Source of the DNA: Escherichia coli
GTDB lineage: Bacteria > Pseudomonadota > Gammaproteobacteria > Enterobacterales > Enterobacteriaceae
Direction: 5' to 3' (one strand)
DNA: 64,000 nucleotides
Assembly: GCF_003334765.1 (NCBI RefSeq)
Contig: NZ_QOWT01000022.1
The translations under genes were made by a program, and so were the position numbers. The notes beneath the pieces are model-generated. The model worked only from the letters and a program-made list of their open reading frames with translations, was not told where the DNA came from and ran no database searches. Positions 2,829 through 9,426 of the stretch are shown here, one piece after another. How positions within the stretch are numbered: the stretch's first letter is position 1; each line of letters opens with the position of its first letter.

Positions 2829-3174
2829 TCTCTGCTCCTGTTGATACGGAAAGGGAAACAGGCACACCGTTATTACGCCGCCCGGTCAGCTCCACCACCA
2901 TTGAACCGTCAAAATCGCTGTTGATGGTGATGGAATCCAGCGTCAGCCGTGGCTCCCAGCGACTCAGCGCCACATACACTGCCGACATGACCTGCAGGCG
3001 TAATGCCGGATTTTGTGGCTGGTCTATCAGTGCCGACAGCAGAGAACCATATTCCCGACGGGCAATACGGCTACCCTGCGGTGTCAGCAGAATGTCCCGC
3101 ACCGACTGGCGCAGATGGTCAATATCAGTAATGGCTTTGCCGCTGGTATTGTTCATCCCGCTATAAAGCGTCAT
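2815..3174 (-). CDS. Baseplate assembly protein (P2 gpW-like, GPW/gp25 family)
   Basis: 119-aa ORF; start overlaps gpV stop as ATGA; position between V and J. Confidence 0.75.
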   Translation of the reverse strand: MTLYSGMNNTSGKAITDIDHLRQSVRDILLTPQGSRIARREYGSLLSALIDQPQNPALRLQVMSAVYVALSRWEPRLTLDSITINSDFDGSMVVELTGRRNNGVPVSLSVSTGAENGSD

Positions 3175-3749
3175 ACCGGACCTCCGGTTGTGTCGCCGCC
3201 TTTCAGGACGCCAGTATGCTGATGCGCATCAACCACAATCCCGTTAGAGCTCATCGCTCCACCGCCCTGGGTAACGCCACCATTGATCACCACTTCGCTG
3301 TTAATACGCGTGCGGTCAGCCTCCAGCATAAACTCACTGGTTTTCAGGGTGATATTGTCAGCGGCCTCAATGACCATTGATTTGATGCCCCTGACATACC
3401 AGCGCCCGGTGGCGGGTTCGTATTCAAACCAGCCGCCGTCAGGATGTTCTGTCACGCAGGCGTCCGCCGACGTCGAAGGTGGCGCGAACTGATTCGAATA
3501 GATGGCGGGTAACGCAAAGGCGGTTTCCAGATTGCCGCCCAGACTCAGCAGCACCACCTGCTCACCTTCCGATGGTCGCCACCATGTGCGGGCATTACCC
3601 GCGCGCAGCGTCAGCCAGTTAATCCAGTTGGTTTCAAGGTCGCCCGTTTTCACCCGACAAAGCCAGTTTTCCCGGTCCACTTCGGTGACTACACCTATGC
3701 GGATCAGATTGGTGATAAGGCGCATGATTTCGGTTAGTTGTGCGTTCAT
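3171..3749 (-). CDS. Baseplate spike/assembly protein (P2 gpV-like)
   Basis: ORF 3171-3992; phage-like sequence begins at internal Met (MNAQLTEIMRLITNL...) at 3749; the upstream in-frame part is AT-rich insert DNA and unlikely to be coding. Confidence 0.7.
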   Translation of the reverse strand: MNAQLTEIMRLITNLIRIGVVTEVDRENWLCRVKTGDLETNWINWLTLRAGNARTWWRPSEGEQVVLLSLGGNLETAFALPAIYSNQFAPPSTSADACVTEHPDGGWFEYEPATGRWYVRGIKSMVIEAADNITLKTSEFMLEADRTRINSEVVINGGVTQGGGAMSSNGIVVDAHQHTGVLKGGDTTGGPV

Positions 3750-3852
3750 AGATATATGATGACAGCTGAAAACTTGTTTATAACTTCTTGCAAATTGTGG
3801 TATCGATGGTACAAATTGATAAAAGGATAAAAAACAACCAATAGGTGGATAA

Positions 3853-4659
3853 ATGAGTGTTATGAATCCAATAAGTTCTAATATATTTAATGCTGAATTT
3901 TTAAACACCCCGGCAGCGGCACTTGCCGCATGGATTTCCATTATTGGAGCTGTTATAACTTTGGTGACGATAGTTATAAGAGCACTATTCAAATATAGAA
4001 AATCTCATGATGTAATTTTGAAAAAATCAGGAATACCTGCGTTTATATTGAATTTTTTTCTTATACGAATATCATTAAAAAGGCTGCCTACTATCACATG
4101 GGCTGAAAAATCAATCACGGTTCTCTTTTCACTTCTTTTTTTGTGTGCAATTTATATTTTTGGTCCAGTTTTCATCCAAGCCATTAGAACCCCACCAAAT
4201 AGCACATTGCTTTATTGGATAAAATCCGGTGAATCATTTTATATGTCAAAAAAACTGGCGACTGCAGCTACAATATTAACCACTCCTGATTGGGAAATAT
4301 CAAAGGATGATTGCGAAGAGTCATCCTCTGCCAGTACAGAGAAGTACAAATCATTAACTATCGAACATAAAGAAATTCTTTGTAAACTACTAACCACTGA
4401 TGAAGGGAATGCTTACATTGATGAAGAAGTCAAGAATTTCGTTAAAGACAAATTCTTTATCTATTCCTTTGCCCCAACAACCATATTTATTCTATTATGG
4501 ATTTCTTTGGGTTTTATACTGACCATTCACTATTCTAAAAAAGTTAGGAAATATATTCTGACTGAACAAAAAAATGCAATTCATTGGGCATATGGTGAAT
4601 TCAAGACAGAAGGAATCTATTCAATATATCAAGAGTTAGAACGTAAGACTCACCATTAA
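3853..4659 (+). CDS. Hypothetical polytopic membrane protein (moron inserted between tail genes S and V)
   Basis: 268-aa ORF, strongly AT-rich unlike flanking tail genes; several hydrophobic segments (e.g. AALAAWISIIGAVITLVTIVI, ITVLFSLLFLCAIYIFGPVF, TTIFILLWISLGFILTI); no recognisable domain. Confidence 0.6.
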   Translation: MSVMNPISSNIFNAEFLNTPAAALAAWISIIGAVITLVTIVIRALFKYRKSHDVILKKSGIPAFILNFFLIRISLKRLPTITWAEKSITVLFSLLFLCAIYIFGPVFIQAIRTPPNSTLLYWIKSGESFYMSKKLATAATILTTPDWEISKDDCEESSSASTEKYKSLTIEHKEILCKLLTTDEGNAYIDEEVKNFVKDKFFIYSFAPTTIFILLWISLGFILTIHYSKKVRKYILTEQKNAIHWAYGEFKTEGIYSIYQELERKTHH

Positions 4660-5047
4660 GACCCAACAAACGACGCTCTGCGTAACGCACTTCCGGTCCT
4701 TTGCGGCTGACGCGATCGCGCAGGCCATAATGGTGAACGCGGGCAATGCGCTGCACCTTACCTTCAAACTGCACGCTGGCAGAATCGGCGCTGGCGGCAG
4801 TTTTCAGGTATTTGGTGGTGCGCAGCTTTGCAAACATCTGACGTTTGATGCGGCCTTTTTTACTGCGCGCCGTGACCTTGCGCGGTTCATAACTGCTGCC
4901 ATCTGGATTGCGCTGCATCCTGATATTCTGCTGCTGTGTCCGGCGCAGTTCCTGCGCCAGCTGGCGCATCATGCGGCTTCTTGCGACTGGTTCCAGATTC
5001 GCCAGTAAGGCACTAAGCCAGTCGTCCACCTTCTGCAGTTCAGCCAC
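4601..5047 (-). CDS. Tail completion / virion morphogenesis protein (P2 gpS-like); last ~19 codons encoded by AT-rich insert DNA
   Basis: 148-aa ORF with basic gpS-like sequence; position next to R; 3' end 4601-4659 overlaps the convergent moron ORF. Confidence 0.7.
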   Translation of the reverse strand: MAELQKVDDWLSALLANLEPVARSRMMRQLAQELRRTQQQNIRMQRNPDGSSYEPRKVTARSKKGRIKRQMFAKLRTTKYLKTAASADSASVQFEGKVQRIARVHHYGLRDRVSRKGPEVRYAERRLLGLNGESYVLTLDILNRFLLS

Positions 5048-5498
5048 GTTTCACCGTCCACATTTCTTCAGGTTCATCGGGTTCTGCTACCGCTTCAACG
5101 CTCGACACACTGCCGTCAGTGCTGACCAGCACACGTTCCGTCAGTTGCAGGTTAAGGCTGATATCACAGACATCGTTGCGCAGAATATCCACCTCAAAGG
5201 TAAATAGTTTTTCCCGTAACGCCGGGTTATTGATGGCATCGGGCTGGTTATCCCGCAGCCACAGCAAAACCGGGGCCATCAGCAGATTCTGGTCGCCGCT
5301 GAAATCCTCAATCACCACGTTCAGGGTGTAACCACGCAGCCCTACGAGTTCACTAAAGGCAGTATCTTTCACCTGATGGAGCCGGACCTGAACCAGGAAA
5401 TTTACGGCCTGCCGGAATATCTGTCCGCCATTCCGTCCGCCTTGCTGAACGAGTCCGCTACGCTGTTCCGGCGTAAATACTACATCAATGGCAGTCAT
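5040..5498 (-). CDS. Tail completion protein (P2 gpR-like); N-terminus possibly not native
   Basis: 152-aa ORF; C-terminal ~100 aa look gpR-like (YTLNVVIEDFSGD...LTERVLVS); N-terminal ~40 codons are antisense to the portal fragment. Confidence 0.65.
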   Translation of the reverse strand: MTAIDVVFTPEQRSGLVQQGGRNGGQIFRQAVNFLVQVRLHQVKDTAFSELVGLRGYTLNVVIEDFSGDQNLLMAPVLLWLRDNQPDAINNPALREKLFTFEVDILRNDVCDISLNLQLTERVLVSTDGSVSSVEAVAEPDEPEEMWTVKRG

Positions 5499-5906
5499 GC
5501 AGGGTTCATCATGTATATGACCGACGCCGCGCAGAACCAGGAGGACGTGAACAACATCCGCCAGGCCATGAAAAGCGCTAAAGGACCGGGCAACTTCCGC
5601 AACCTGTTTATGTATTCACCCAACGGCAAAAAGGACGGGATTCAGATAATCCCGCTGTCAGAGGTAGCGGCAAAGGATGAGTTTCTGAACATTAAGAACG
5701 TGAGCCGAGACGACATGATGGCTGCACACCGCGTTCCGCCGCAGATGATGGGGATTATGCCGAGTAATGTTGGGGGATTTGGGGATGTGGAAAAGGCGAG
5801 TAAGGTGTTTGTCCGTAACGAATTGATACCGCTGCAAAAGCGAATTAAAGAAATTAATGAATGGTTGAGTGATGAAATAATTTCTTTCCAACCATATGAA
5901 TTATAA
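5376..5906 (+). pseudogene. Portal protein fragment (P2 gpQ-like, C-terminal portion only)
   Basis: 176-aa ORF ending ...NVSRDDMMAAHRVPPQMMGIMP...; portal-like C-terminus, about half the expected length; directly abuts gpR on the opposite strand with no capsid, terminase or lysis genes between. Confidence 0.6.
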
Positions 5907-5907
5907 T

Positions 5908-5934
5908 AAAGTAGGGCAAATAATGCCCTACTTT
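5908..5934. terminator. Bidirectional stem-loop between convergent portal fragment and 285-aa cargo gene
   Basis: Perfect inverted repeat AAAGTAGGGC-(AAATAAT)-GCCCTACTTT flanked by A/T runs. Confidence 0.6.
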
Positions 5935-6785
5935 AACCAAATATTATAATCCAATCTTCCTACGTATCTTGAAAAAACAGCCAGAGCAATTGCTTGCCCT
6001 ACACTTGTTAATTCAATTCCTTGATAGTTGCTCTTTGAAAATTTTTCTAAAAATGCAGACACATGAGGGGCAACTAACTTAAGATTTGAAATATATGCAC
6101 TCTTATCTTTTATATCAGTCGGATATTTACTCATAAAATAGTCTTCAACATCCATCCCTAAAAAAGTATTCCATGAACAAGCCCCTGCATATTGAATGTG
6201 ATATATCTGGGCTTGAGACAAATTAAACCCATTAGTATACATTGATTCAAAGTTTCTAAAATTGTGCTCCAACAAATCCAATCGAACACCATTAACAGGG
6301 TCTTTGATCTCAACATTCTTGAGAAGAAAAACTATCGTTATAAGTGATATTTGTTGCTGTGTTAACTTGGGAACGACGGTAACTGCCTCCGTTAAAACTA
6401 TATCTCTAAAATCGTCATTGTTATTGGAGACTCGTTCAACTAACAACTGAGAAAGCACATCCATATTAGCTTTCTTTCCCTTCCTGGCTGATGACTTTAA
6501 TGCCTCAGTCAATGTAGCCTGAACGTCCGGATCGCAAAATTTATCAATAATCAATCTATCAACGTTTTTTGTTAAATCCGAAACGACACGCTCTTCAAAA
6601 TCTTTTGCATTCTCTTGAGCTGCAGCATAAGCAACATCTTTCAATTTTGGAAACTGATTTTCGAAGAGAATGTTGAATAGTTCTCTAACCTCGGAAAACG
6701 ACATCCCTGAAACATTTACATTATTTCCAGCTTGAATTGCATACGAATTATTACCTATTTGTTGCTTTTGCTTATCACTAAACAT
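5928..6785 (-). CDS. Hypothetical protein, 285 aa (AT-rich cargo, cos-proximal)
   Basis: Long ORF in AT-rich DNA; no domain recognised; N-terminal low-complexity motif IGNNSYAIQAGNNVNV. Confidence 0.65.
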   Translation of the reverse strand: MFSDKQKQQIGNNSYAIQAGNNVNVSGMSFSEVRELFNILFENQFPKLKDVAYAAAQENAKDFEERVVSDLTKNVDRLIIDKFCDPDVQATLTEALKSSARKGKKANMDVLSQLLVERVSNNNDDFRDIVLTEAVTVVPKLTQQQISLITIVFLLKNVEIKDPVNGVRLDLLEHNFRNFESMYTNGFNLSQAQIYHIQYAGACSWNTFLGMDVEDYFMSKYPTDIKDKSAYISNLKLVAPHVSAFLEKFSKSNYQGIELTSVGQAIALAVFSRYVGRLDYNIWLK

Positions 6786-6794
6786 ATATCCTCC

Positions 6795-7040
6795 TTATTT
6801 TTTATCACCTGTATTTATACAATCAATTTTAATATCACCTCTAGCCTGGACAGCAGTTGAATTATCACCAACTGATTGGCTCATAGAATTATATTTATTT
6901 TTTGTAGTGATAAGTAATCCAGCTAAAGCGCTAACTGCAGCCAAAAATGCAACAATAGAATCAAAACCAGGATCCATATAAAGCCATAATCCTGCAATCG
7001 ATGCCAGCATACATGTAATGACTATTGCAAAAATTTTCAT
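6795..7040 (-). CDS. Small membrane protein, 81 aa, two predicted TM helices; co-oriented 9 bp upstream of the 285-aa gene
   Basis: Hydrophobic segments IFAIVITCMLASIAGLWLY and IVAFLAAVSALAGLLIT; C-terminal tail VGDNSTAVQARGDIKI resembles the N-terminus of the downstream protein. Confidence 0.55.
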   Translation of the reverse strand: MKIFAIVITCMLASIAGLWLYMDPGFDSIVAFLAAVSALAGLLITTKNKYNSMSQSVGDNSTAVQARGDIKIDCINTGDKK

Positions 7041-7108
7041 AAATTCTCCTTCTAATGGAAGTGGTTATACCGAAAACAATTTCCTTTTACAACCACGCAC
7101 AGCGCGCG

Positions 7109-7127
7109 CTCGTATCCCCGCCACGCC
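7109..7127 (-). other. cos-like site (P2/186-type cohesive-end sequence)
   Basis: Minus strand reads GGCGTGGCGGGGATACGAG, close to the P2/186 cos overhang as I recall it (GGCG[A/T]GGCGGGGAAAGCA-); sits in a GC-rich island inside AT-rich DNA. Confidence 0.45.
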
Positions 7128-7345
7128 TGCCCGCTTTGTGTAGTGGTTTTCATGCACCTGCATGACATAAGTAAAAGCCCGCCAGAACTGGCGGGACTGA
7201 GCAAAAACGATCCTTTTGCGATCATTCATTTTCATGCGCTATAGTCATGCAACAAACGCATACGAACCATATGGTTAGATTACTCATCAAGTCAGATGGA
7301 TTTTCAGGCAGATTGCCACAGCAATTGTAAAGGAGCGAGATTGAA

Positions 7346-8347
7346 ATGGGTGGAGAGACTTCGGCTATACAACGAGTCGCGGGTAAGATTTCTGATGATA
7401 TTTTCTCAGTGTTCAAATGGGATCGTGCCGCTAGAGCGGACATGAATTGGGATTGTTGCCAAGAGGCTCATTCCAAGAAAACACATCCAAGCGATGTTGT
7501 ATTTTTCTACATAGATCCATATGAGGAGGAAATGGTCTATCTCAACACAGACCTCAAAAGCTATGCAGAAGGTACTATTGGGAAAAAAATAGTCGAGGGA
7601 GCTTTAACATCGCTTGCTTTAGCTACCGAGTGTGCAAATGTCAGTGAAGAATGGCGATTGAAATATGTTCATGATGATTCTTTAGGTTATAACGTAAGAG
7701 GGTTATTATTCTTATATAACCATGATAATTTATATGATAAAGACTTCTATGAGAATATTACAAAAAAATTAGATCACTCATCTATAAATTGCCCTCCAAA
7801 CATCAAACTACATTTGCTTGACCCTTATAAAATATCAGATTTGATAAACATATCTTCTGACATAACTAAGTTAATTGGTTCAGGCAAACTTCCTCAACCT
7901 GATAAGTTCACATATTATTATCCAGATCTTTCCCTAACAAGAATAAAGCACCCTATTAATCAGACAACACCTGCAACAATTGAATTATTAACATCACCAT
8001 ACATTATAATAAAGCATGAGGCTTTCAGTTGGCTCAGGGATAAAAACCCTGAGGGATATGTTGTTTATTACAATCAACCGGGGGATTCAGTAGACGAATT
8101 CGTTTACTTCTTTGATATGTTATCAACTTATCAGATATTAACCGAAGGTAAACCAATCGTATTACGCCATTGTCACATTCACCCAAATGAAAATGCCATT
8201 CATCATTTTGAAAGAGCGAAAAAGAAATACAGCACAGACTGGCTCTTAGGCGAGGATGAAAGACTTTTTCTTAAAATTGACTTCGACAAGACAGACAAAA
8301 TTGTTGTTGAATATAATCTTGAACAAATCGGCATGGAGCAACGATAA
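7346..8347 (+). CDS. Hypothetical protein A, 333 aa (first gene of three-gene cargo operon)
   Basis: ORF with AGGAG-like RBS ~10 nt upstream; AT-rich; stop overlaps next start (TAATG); no Walker A, RT or TIR motif seen. Confidence 0.7.
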   Translation: MGGETSAIQRVAGKISDDIFSVFKWDRAARADMNWDCCQEAHSKKTHPSDVVFFYIDPYEEEMVYLNTDLKSYAEGTIGKKIVEGALTSLALATECANVSEEWRLKYVHDDSLGYNVRGLLFLYNHDNLYDKDFYENITKKLDHSSINCPPNIKLHLLDPYKISDLINISSDITKLIGSGKLPQPDKFTYYYPDLSLTRIKHPINQTTPATIELLTSPYIIIKHEAFSWLRDKNPEGYVVYYNQPGDSVDEFVYFFDMLSTYQILTEGKPIVLRHCHIHPNENAIHHFERAKKKYSTDWLLGEDERLFLKIDFDKTDKIVVEYNLEQIGMEQR

Positions 8348-9426
8348 TGGCTAAAAAACTATATTTCGCAACTGATAAAAATATTTATGATGCATTACAT
8401 CATAAAAGGATAACCGCTGCAAAGTTGCATGAATTATTGTTGAATCGAGGTGTGTTTTTATCACCAGAACTCGACAAGGAAATACTAATCGAGGAAATAT
8501 CCAAACTTCCTCACGGATTTAATGAATTAGAACACATAAAAAAACTGGTCAAAACATATGACCCAAGGGAAAGCACTACTAGTGTGAGCTTCCAAACCTC
8601 AACAAATCAGGCCGAATTAAAAAGTGCTGCTGAAGCACTAAAAAAAACATGCTCCCCTAGTAAAGGTCAAAGCCTGAATATTGTAGCTAAAAAAGATGGC
8701 TCGCTTACAGTAGAATACAAATATGAAGAAATAGACCTGTCTAAAACTGCATTACGTCAGATCGACAAGCGGAATGTTATAATAGAACTTCGCCCTGGAG
8801 CTGACAAAGTTGAAGTACGTATGCCTCAAAACCCCGAGGCAAAAAAAGTTATTGAGAGCTTGCAAAACGAGCTATCTAAAATCAAGTCCGAACCTATCGA
8901 GCGCTTCGAAATATCATTACTAGCAATAACTGATCCTACATTGCGAAGTCAGTTTTTTCAGGAATTAATGAATGGTCTACGCGGTTATGAGACTGATGAC
9001 GTAACAAAAGTCGAATTAAATCGCAGTACTGATGCTAGTGAGGATGAAGACAAGGAAGAAACTATTGATACCGGATTTGTTAAGAAAGCCGTCCTTAATG
9101 GTGAAGGGGTAAATAGTTCAGCTATATTTTCTCAACTACATGAGAAAGGTTATTATATCGGGCGTATTGCATGGTCTTCAAAGCCGACAAGTGGAATTGG
9201 AGACAGAATCAACGTCGAAGCATTTTTCAAAGACTCAGAAAAATGCTGTGACTTTGCCTATCAAATTAAAGGTATAAACAATCAAAAAGAAGACGGTTTC
9301 AATGTAACCATTCGCGCGGCAACGGCACAAGAGAAAAAACATATTAGTGAATTAATTGAGTCCGCCGCTGAAAATGCCTATAATATAATAATAGGATCAG
9401 AGGTGAACGAAGATGAAAAAGGTTAA
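8347..9426 (+). CDS. Hypothetical protein B, 359 aa (second gene of three-gene cargo operon)
   Basis: ORF coupled to gene A by a 1-nt overlap and to gene C by a 14-nt overlap; acidic stretch DASEDEDKEE; no recognisable domain. Confidence 0.7.
   Translation: MAKKLYFATDKNIYDALHHKRITAAKLHELLLNRGVFLSPELDKEILIEEISKLPHGFNELEHIKKLVKTYDPRESTTSVSFQTSTNQAELKSAAEALKKTCSPSKGQSLNIVAKKDGSLTVEYKYEEIDLSKTALRQIDKRNVIIELRPGADKVEVRMPQNPEAKKVIESLQNELSKIKSEPIERFEISLLAITDPTLRSQFFQELMNGLRGYETDDVTKVELNRSTDASEDEDKEETIDTGFVKKAVLNGEGVNSSAIFSQLHEKGYYIGRIAWSSKPTSGIGDRINVEAFFKDSEKCCDFAYQIKGINNQKEDGFNVTIRAATAQEKKHISELIESAAENAYNIIIGSEVNEDEKG

Follow-up and report, generated by a model that had tools for sequence, protein, structure and literature searches.

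Accessory cassettes at the S-V site of 186-like prophages probably bring their own gpS C-terminus

We have analyzed a stretch of 64,000 nucleotides of Escherichia coli DNA (contig NZ_QOWT01000022.1, here referred to as the window) in which the prophage gene for the tail completion protein gpS ends in AT-rich DNA, in an antisense overlap with a convergent accessory gene. In all likelihood, what is found here is an accessory site between genes S and V whose cassettes bring along a gpS tail and a promoter box together with the cargo, so that the gpS of the window is an intact mosaic. In this 186-like lineage the exchangeable unit would be larger than the accessory gene, with its left edge at gpS codons 126–135 and its right edge at the start codon of V, and each cassette would carry its own version of the last ~19 gpS codons (an amphipathic C-terminal helix), an accessory gene and the late-activator box of the V promoter. 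Such cassettes presumably pass from one phage backbone to another when the conserved gpS body and gpV recombine. The window carries the one with a DUF6216 gene, and its gpS is mosaic and yet complete. The site shows the traits of a moron (accessory gene) site, being located between gpS and gpV, with a composition unlike that of the phage and a content that varies among close relatives.

The gene of gpS (tail completion or virion morphogenesis protein) is an intact ORF on the minus strand, at positions 4601–5047, with a GTG start and coding for 148 aa. Its C-terminal end reads ...NGESYVLTLDILNRFLLS in the ORF list, the closing residues of the minus strand ORF being ...RRLLGLNGESYVLTLDILNRFLLS in the sequence. 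Two family profiles matched the protein over its full length, C-terminus included, namely Pfam PF05069 Phage_tail_S (E = 9.8e-40, residues 3–146 against model positions 2–147 of 148) and PHROG 26 (E = 3.2e-48). The length falls within the ~147–152 aa typical of the family, and the C-terminal helix pattern described below is also present. Klebsiella phage 4LV2017 and Escherichia phage 500465-1 have a gpS 88–89% identical to it; for P2 the figure is 39%. The gene comes directly after gpR, the end of which it overlaps, and precedes gpV in the late tail cluster, with R upstream of it; I, J, W and V follow downstream, and all these genes share the minus strand. The order in the window, I-J-W-V-(cassette)-S-R, is the same as in P2, 186 and 500465-1.

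The composition changes sharply before the gene ends. The final 60 nt of gpS have a GC of 0.35 vs. 0.59 in the 120 nt before, and along the region the values go from ~0.53–0.62 in the flanking phage genes to 0.30–0.36 across positions 3701–4700. In the insert-free relatives 4LV2017 and 500465-1 the S stop and the V start are 68 nt apart, and gpS has also 148 aa. DNA identity to these relatives holds at ~95% as far as position 4670, the third base of codon R126, and is ~47% beyond, the amino acid differences beginning at residue 130. Identity is back up at the V ATG, and the first 400 nt of gpV (baseplate assembly protein, 3171–3749, minus strand), which shows high identity to relatives from its ATG on, are 94.5% identical to those of the related locus L003. 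Since identity breaks at 4670 and returns at the V start, the replaced segment is 3750–4670, i.e., the whole AT-rich S-V cassette, which stands in place of the 68-nt spacer of the insert-free relatives and includes the last ~22 gpS codons. The cassette-linked 3' end of gpS (4601–4670, minus strand) begins at the third base of codon 126, takes in the stop codon and encodes the C-terminal helix LNGESYVLTLDILNRFLLS. The GC switch was found at the same place of gpS in every insert-bearing relative examined, and for this reason it is not a chance fluctuation; the left junctions are all within gpS codons 126–135, right after the conserved motif YAERRLLG. The first-pass annotation had put the switch near 4660, leaving ~19 codons in the insert, which was correct to ~10 nt, and its 59-nt overlap between gpS and the convergent ORF is found exactly where it was placed, at 4601–4659.

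The tail is inherited with the cassette. In locus L013, a carrier of the DUF6216 cassette, the gpS body and the 5' end of gpV are 83.1 and 82.5% identical at the DNA level to those of the window, and the tail is 98.3% identical. The opposite is found in loci L003, L014, L015, L026, L037 and L078, with other inserts or none, where the gpS bodies are 93–94% identical and the tails 47–58%. The tail thus follows the DUF6216 cassette rather than the gpS body, and in this sense the gpS of the window is chimeric, as had been proposed; that the DNA brought in is unrelated to gpS was not supported (see below). At the other end of the cassette there is a TGT-N12-ACA box, TGTACCATCGATACCACA (3796–3813, minus strand), starting 64 nt upstream of the V ATG, which is the copy that the cassette has of the late-activator (Ogr-type) site of the V-operon promoter. 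The insert-free relative has a box also at -64 from the V ATG, and the P2 record annotates the activator binding site of the V promoter at the corresponding place. All 10 insert-bearing representatives examined have the box at -63 to -66, with a different sequence in each. Because the tail follows the cassette and the box differs from cassette to cassette, the exchangeable unit is made up of the gpS tail, the cargo and the late-promoter box.

When the tails are compared across the family they turn out to be variants of one another. Among 80 related IMG/VR loci, 58 lack the insert and have the 68-nt S-V gap together with the tail VNDDVEAMTRDMILQWLAG/E. We identified nine distinct insert types in IMG/VR loci, with S-V gaps of 748, 851/852, 872, 967, 989 (two different ones), 1393, 1536 and 1892 nt, each with its own gpS tail. 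In all nine, gpS has 147–149 aa and the tail conforms to a common pattern, N-x(6)-T/I-x-D-I/L-L-x-x-W/F/Y-L, with a tail GC of 0.28–0.42 vs. 0.54 in insert-free gpS. A survey of 120 database gpS homologues with 80% or more identity to the query gave at least 55 distinct tails after the RRLLG motif, 42 of them 18–20 residues long. The gpS of phage vB_EcoM-720R8 was discarded as a further variant: its translation holds X residues and the family sequence is lost downstream of them.

To this pattern we can add a score. A PSSM built from 31 gpS tails of 19 residues belonging to other types gives the tail of the window 22.0 bits, which is below the 31–45 bits of the training tails themselves, and none of 20,000 shuffles of the tail reached that value (mean -18.6, z = 5.3). 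The highest value among 615 stop-free 19-mers translated from the cassette was 6.9 bits. In an AlphaFold2 model computed from a 40-sequence alignment, residues 132–147 form a predicted helix with block-mean pLDDT of 83–87, one of the best-scored parts of a model that is poor overall (pTM 0.31). With such a pTM the fold comparison is uninformative: Foldseek gave no matches of the model to the PDB at E ≤ 0.001. Neither did a search of the PDB sequences with gpS (phmmer and a 40-sequence profile) give anything meaningful, the sole match being the ribosomal eL38 at E = 0.36. Judging from the sequence, the tail of the window is a homologous gpS C-terminus of the exact family length, and the protein is a mosaic and not a broken one. 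The replacement of the native C-terminus by unrelated insert DNA, as initially suggested, is not supported in view of the 148 aa length, the family pattern and its score, the Pfam match up to residue 146 and the predicted helix. Conservation of homologues through their last 19 residues, which had been named as the finding that would speak against the claim, is seen among those with the same cassette; among those without it, it extends to length and pattern only.

The cargo of the window is a single accessory gene on the plus strand (3853–4659), coding for a protein of 268 aa with several hydrophobic segments. It matches Pfam PF19723 (DUF6216) with E = 7e-12, residues 72–237 against model positions 114–265 of 270, and is annotated by PGAP/RefSeq in E. 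coli genomes as 'DUF6216 family protein'. There were no matches for it in PADLOC or PHROG, nor any informative literature. The Orf30 of P2 was considered as a homologue and rejected, as BLASTP gave an E of 0.042 over 66 residues and hhalign a probability of 0.5%, and Pfam did not match it. A promoter consensus scan of positions 3750–3852 found none, and neither did a terminator scan of 3600–5100; the RNA fold of the S 3' region had a z of -0.14, and the sole inverted repeat at the S/DUF6216 junction is an imperfect one of 9 nt. In the 59 nt shared by both strands, residues 130–148 and the stop codon of gpS (minus) face residues 250–268 and the stop codon of DUF6216 (plus).

Full-length DUF6216 homologues span 22–99% identity. 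The distant ones (22–35% identity, 232–246 aa) end at about residue 247 of the window protein, directly ahead of GEFK, so the protein of the window and its subfamily do not have the C-terminus typical of the family and carry ~21 extra residues (GEFK...). This extension is confined to the one subfamily to which the S-V cassette copies of phages belong, and is lineage-specific, given that the distant relatives end before the overlap segment. Within the subfamily (50–99% identity) DUF6216 is most conserved at its C-terminus, in the segment GEFKxEGIYxIYQEL that makes up the overlap.

A conserved antisense frame raises the question of which of the two proteins is under selection. One could think that the last ~19 residues of gpS are dispensable or nearly unconstrained and that their conservation is a by-product of selection on DUF6216 in the opposite strand. 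We consider this improbable, although it accounts for part of the data: there are at least 55 tail variants on a conserved body, and the DUF6216 tail is conserved in decayed prophage remnants with no intact gpS. In loci L085, L086 and L095, DUF6216 stands beside a gpS pseudogene or a truncated gpS, L088 keeps only a 35-codon 3' remnant of gpS, and L089 and L094 have almost no gpS. The LTLDIL core persists in remnants where gpS is gone, and hence its conservation could reflect selection on DUF6216 alone. However, tail length is held at 18–20 residues, and the amphipathic pattern extends to cassettes whose accessory genes overlap gpS by 12 nt or less. Besides, in the gpS-less loci the S frame gains a stop codon (L094) and prolines (L089 and L094), in part by changes that do not alter DUF6216, unlike in loci with an intact gpS, where changes in the S frame are conservative. 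With 3–4 loci per class the comparison is small, and on this small sample the pattern fits selection acting on both frames when both genes are present. Both reading frames are conserved at present.

A more adventurous reading, which we would also hold to be improbable, takes selection on gpS further. The helix would be a selected hypervariable determinant, for example to evade a host or satellite system that recognizes gpS or to match a partner, or else the overlap would be regulatory, with late transcription through gpS silencing a DUF6216 gene expressed in lysogeny, and with the DUF6216 transcript antisense to the 3' end of the gpS mRNA. If this were true, the S-V cassettes would be functional modules of three parts, i.e., tail helix, cargo and late promoter.

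Whether such a mosaic gpS is likely to work can be gauged in part from the carriers. Of 5,426 complete E. coli genomes, 111 have the DUF6216 cassette, among them those of the E. coli B, BL21 and REL606 lineage (99.4% identity in E. coli B and BL21), and in all 12 carriers listed among the 111 gpS is annotated as a normal CDS. Six loci (L005, L008, L010, L012, L013 and L087) have the cassette and the tail in locally intact X-holin-lysozyme-lysB-R-S-V-W-J clusters, over backbones that are 68–100% identical at the protein level. The two E. coli carriers inspected in detail, the window and strain H3, are both defective prophages, and a tblastn of DUF6216 against 50,697 INPHARED phage records gave no matches. 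Phage R18C, described as isolated as a plaque-forming virus (PMC6823313), has its own S-V accessory gene and a distinct gpS tail, with a GC of 0.30 in the last 63 nt vs. 0.50 in the body. AT-rich tails linked to a cassette are therefore compatible with viability, since a plaque-forming phage has one.

The defect of the window prophage lies elsewhere. The gene of gpR (tail terminator; 5040–5332, minus strand) is truncated at its 5' end and, by alignment with intact gpR, only residues from ~47 on are left. It is fused at 5325–5332 to the C-terminal part of the portal gene, the gpQ homologue (5325–5906, plus strand; TIGR01540 positions 139–316 of 320, E = 3.9e-70). In pZ1322HEC0001-3, 100% identical over positions 3100–5332 of the window, the two sides of this junction are ~7 kb apart, which indicates a deletion of ~7 kb that removes the lysis genes, X, L, terminase, capsid, scaffold and the 5' part of the portal gene. 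The junction was absent from all the complete E. coli genomes examined. Due to this R-Q deletion the element of the window cannot make particles whatever gpS does, and the prophage is defective for a reason other than gpS.

These data bear on the explanation offered in the first-pass annotation, i.e., an insertion inside gpS with the frame running into unrelated DNA, to give a chimeric and possibly non-functional protein. It is very improbable. Consistent with it, the DNA of the last ~22 codons is AT-rich and its identity to the insert-free relatives is lost, the window prophage and several carriers are defective, and INPHARED holds no isolated phage with the DUF6216 cassette. Yet a broken frame would hardly keep the exact family length, a tail pattern that no shuffle equals, a Pfam match to residue 146 and a predicted helix, nor would gpS stay at 147–149 aa in nine out of nine insert types, when the chance for a frame to stay open and to stop no more than one codon away from the family length is ~5% per case (a hand estimate, at 33% GC). 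Diverged backbones have the same tail in late clusters that are locally intact, the defects of the window map to the R-Q deletion, and the analogous tail of R18C likewise goes against a loss of function. Under the mosaic reading, gpS would function in tail assembly.

Regarding the origin of the overlap, the most likely course is that DUF6216 was extended over the antisense of the gpS tail. The DUF6216 ORF would have lost its original stop codon and been prolonged by ~21 codons over a gpS tail that already existed. Outgroups lack the extension, the gpS frame has its homologues in its own family, and conservation is higher in the overlap than in its flanks: in the four most diverged comparisons, identity is 81–85% over the 48 nt common to all forms vs. 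61–65% over the remainder of the DUF6216 gene. It counts on the other side that the short DUF6216 relatives (243–246 aa) are found at a chromosomal site, ybjL-rcdA, without any gpS remnant. The reverse direction, an older DUF6216 C-terminus on the antisense of which a gpS tail was re-created after the insertion, could explain the insert composition of the overlap DNA and the strong conservation of the extension, but it is scarcely credible when DUF6216 relatives outside the subfamily have no extension and the S-frame peptide is homologous to the gpS tails of unrelated cassettes, P2 and 186.

Some practical consequences can be drawn. A gpS gene with a GC switch and a convergent overlap at its 3' end should not be annotated as disrupted, because both are the normal state in this lineage whenever the S-V site is occupied. 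Where to place the limits of a hotspot, when P2-like prophages are surveyed, also depends on such data: the S-V site has an edge inside a gene, and its cassettes come with a gpS helix and a V-promoter box of their own. The retention of DUF6216 alone in decayed prophage remnants hints at a benefit of this gene for the host.

The overlap between DUF6216 and gpS is also a small and clean example of likely overprinting with conservation in both frames. As in known cases, there is a lineage-specific extension absent in outgroups, the older frame is homologous to its family and conservation is raised in the overlap; in contrast, the overlap is here only 47–59 nt and the function of the extension is putative.

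The genomes of phages, lambdoid and P2-like ones among them, are mosaics with junctions that may be found inside genes or at domain boundaries. The window has in common with them the sharp breaks of identity and a module shared by diverged backbones. What is different is that the junction recurs within ~10 codons of one gene for nine cargoes, and that the piece swapped is a homologous helix of 19 residues.

Hypervariable hotspots of P2-like prophages, for defence and accessory genes, have been described in which cargo is swapped rapidly between conserved core genes, with different cargo over identical cores (PMC9122126; bioRxiv 10.64898/2026.02.27.708500; bioRxiv 10.1101/2024.10.15.618418), one of them within the late and tail genes (bioRxiv 10.64898/2026.02.27.708500). 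Text searches of these three sources found no mention of gpS, of a gpS tail or of a V promoter travelling with the cargo. Compared with the defence cargo of such hotspots, DUF6216 differs in having no PADLOC match.

The closest known system is P2 itself. The S-V region is counted, in PMC6823313 with a citation of the review by Christie and Calendar, among the three classical accessory-gene (moron) regions of P2-like phages, and P2 holds there orf30 (record NC_001895). The orf30 locus is in the same place, between gpS and gpV, has a higher AT content than the phage, consists of a single non-essential ORF convergent with gpS and varies in content among relatives. The difference is at the boundary: in P2 the cargo sits cleanly between the genes, with a gpS tail of 0.51 GC, an annotated terminator between S and orf30 and no overlap, whereas in the window the start of the variable unit lies within gpS, with an overlap of 59 nt. 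The S-V accessory class is thus already known, and what we add to it is a modest twist, a boundary located inside a gene and an overlap that codes on both strands.

In each cassette exchanged between gpS and gpV (tail completion and baseplate assembly genes), a copy of the TGT-N12-ACA motif, the box of the Ogr-type late activator, was found upstream of gpV, at a distance of 63-66 nt from its ATG (3796-3813 in the window). When these boxes were compared among the window and ten related loci (L003, L013-L016, L026, L037, L075, L078 and L084), the AT-rich sequence in which the motif lies differed from cassette to cassette. Since every cassette thus has a box of its own, the V operon's late promoter is exchanged together with the cargo. 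A further variable spot of the late cluster would be the lysA/lysB region. Comparing the loci that carry the DUF6216 accessory gene (L005-L013 and L087) with L003, no counterpart of the lysA-like gene of phage 500465-1 was found in the former, and their lysB had a different N-terminus, the alignment beginning at residue 17 in most.

The DUF6216 gene was also found alone in chromosomes. In Citrobacter and other Enterobacterales (L088, L089, L094, L095 and L097-L099) it lies between the Asp:Ala antiporter gene ybjL and rcdA/ybjJ, the integration site of the window's prophage family in E. coli, where the prophage of E. coli H3 (L096) is located. Some of these copies are accompanied by remnants of the gpS 3' end, which suggests that the accessory gene may persist after the prophage is lost. 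Shorter relatives of 243 aa are found at the same site without the gpS remnant. Prophage remnants retaining DUF6216 were detected at a second site, adjoining rpoD and a gene of the uracil-DNA glycosylase family (L085, L086 and L093). One of them (L093) has also kept an ogr/delta-like gene and an intact-looking gpS; the other two contain an IS3-family transposase, and their gpS, interrupted by in-frame stops, is a pseudogene.

Among chromosomal relatives, the one closest to the window's prophage is that of E. coli H3 (NZ_CP028732.1). It is also degenerate: D and the tape-measure gene are truncated, tail-fibre genes are frameshifted, and a deletion runs from lysC to the terminase small subunit. 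In the window, the tail terminator gene gpR has lost its first ~47 codons and what remains is joined head-on to the portal gene, of which the C-terminal ~55% is left (5040-5906, junction at ~5325-5332), implying that a ~7 kb internal deletion took out lysis and head genes. This junction was found in none of the complete E. coli RefSeq genomes. Judging from these gene remains, several independent routes of decay are apparently under way in this lineage.

The known hotspot on the gpQ side of P2-like phages, past the portal gene, holds an AT-rich cargo (5928-9426) that was also found in the H3 prophage. Its members are a minus-strand gene (5928-6785) whose product belongs to the LPO_1073/Vpar_1526 family and two genes with full-length matches to the PADLOC candidate-system models Hp1 (7346-8347) and Hp2 (8347-9426).

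Phage R18C (L090) is reported to have a genome ~98% identical to that of phage WPhi (PMC6823313), and despite this its gpS (NC_049461.1, 8910-9368) is only 55% identical overall to that of P2. The two proteins are the same over the first ~26 residues and divergent thereafter, so that mosaic junctions within gpS can fall far deeper than in the window's lineage.
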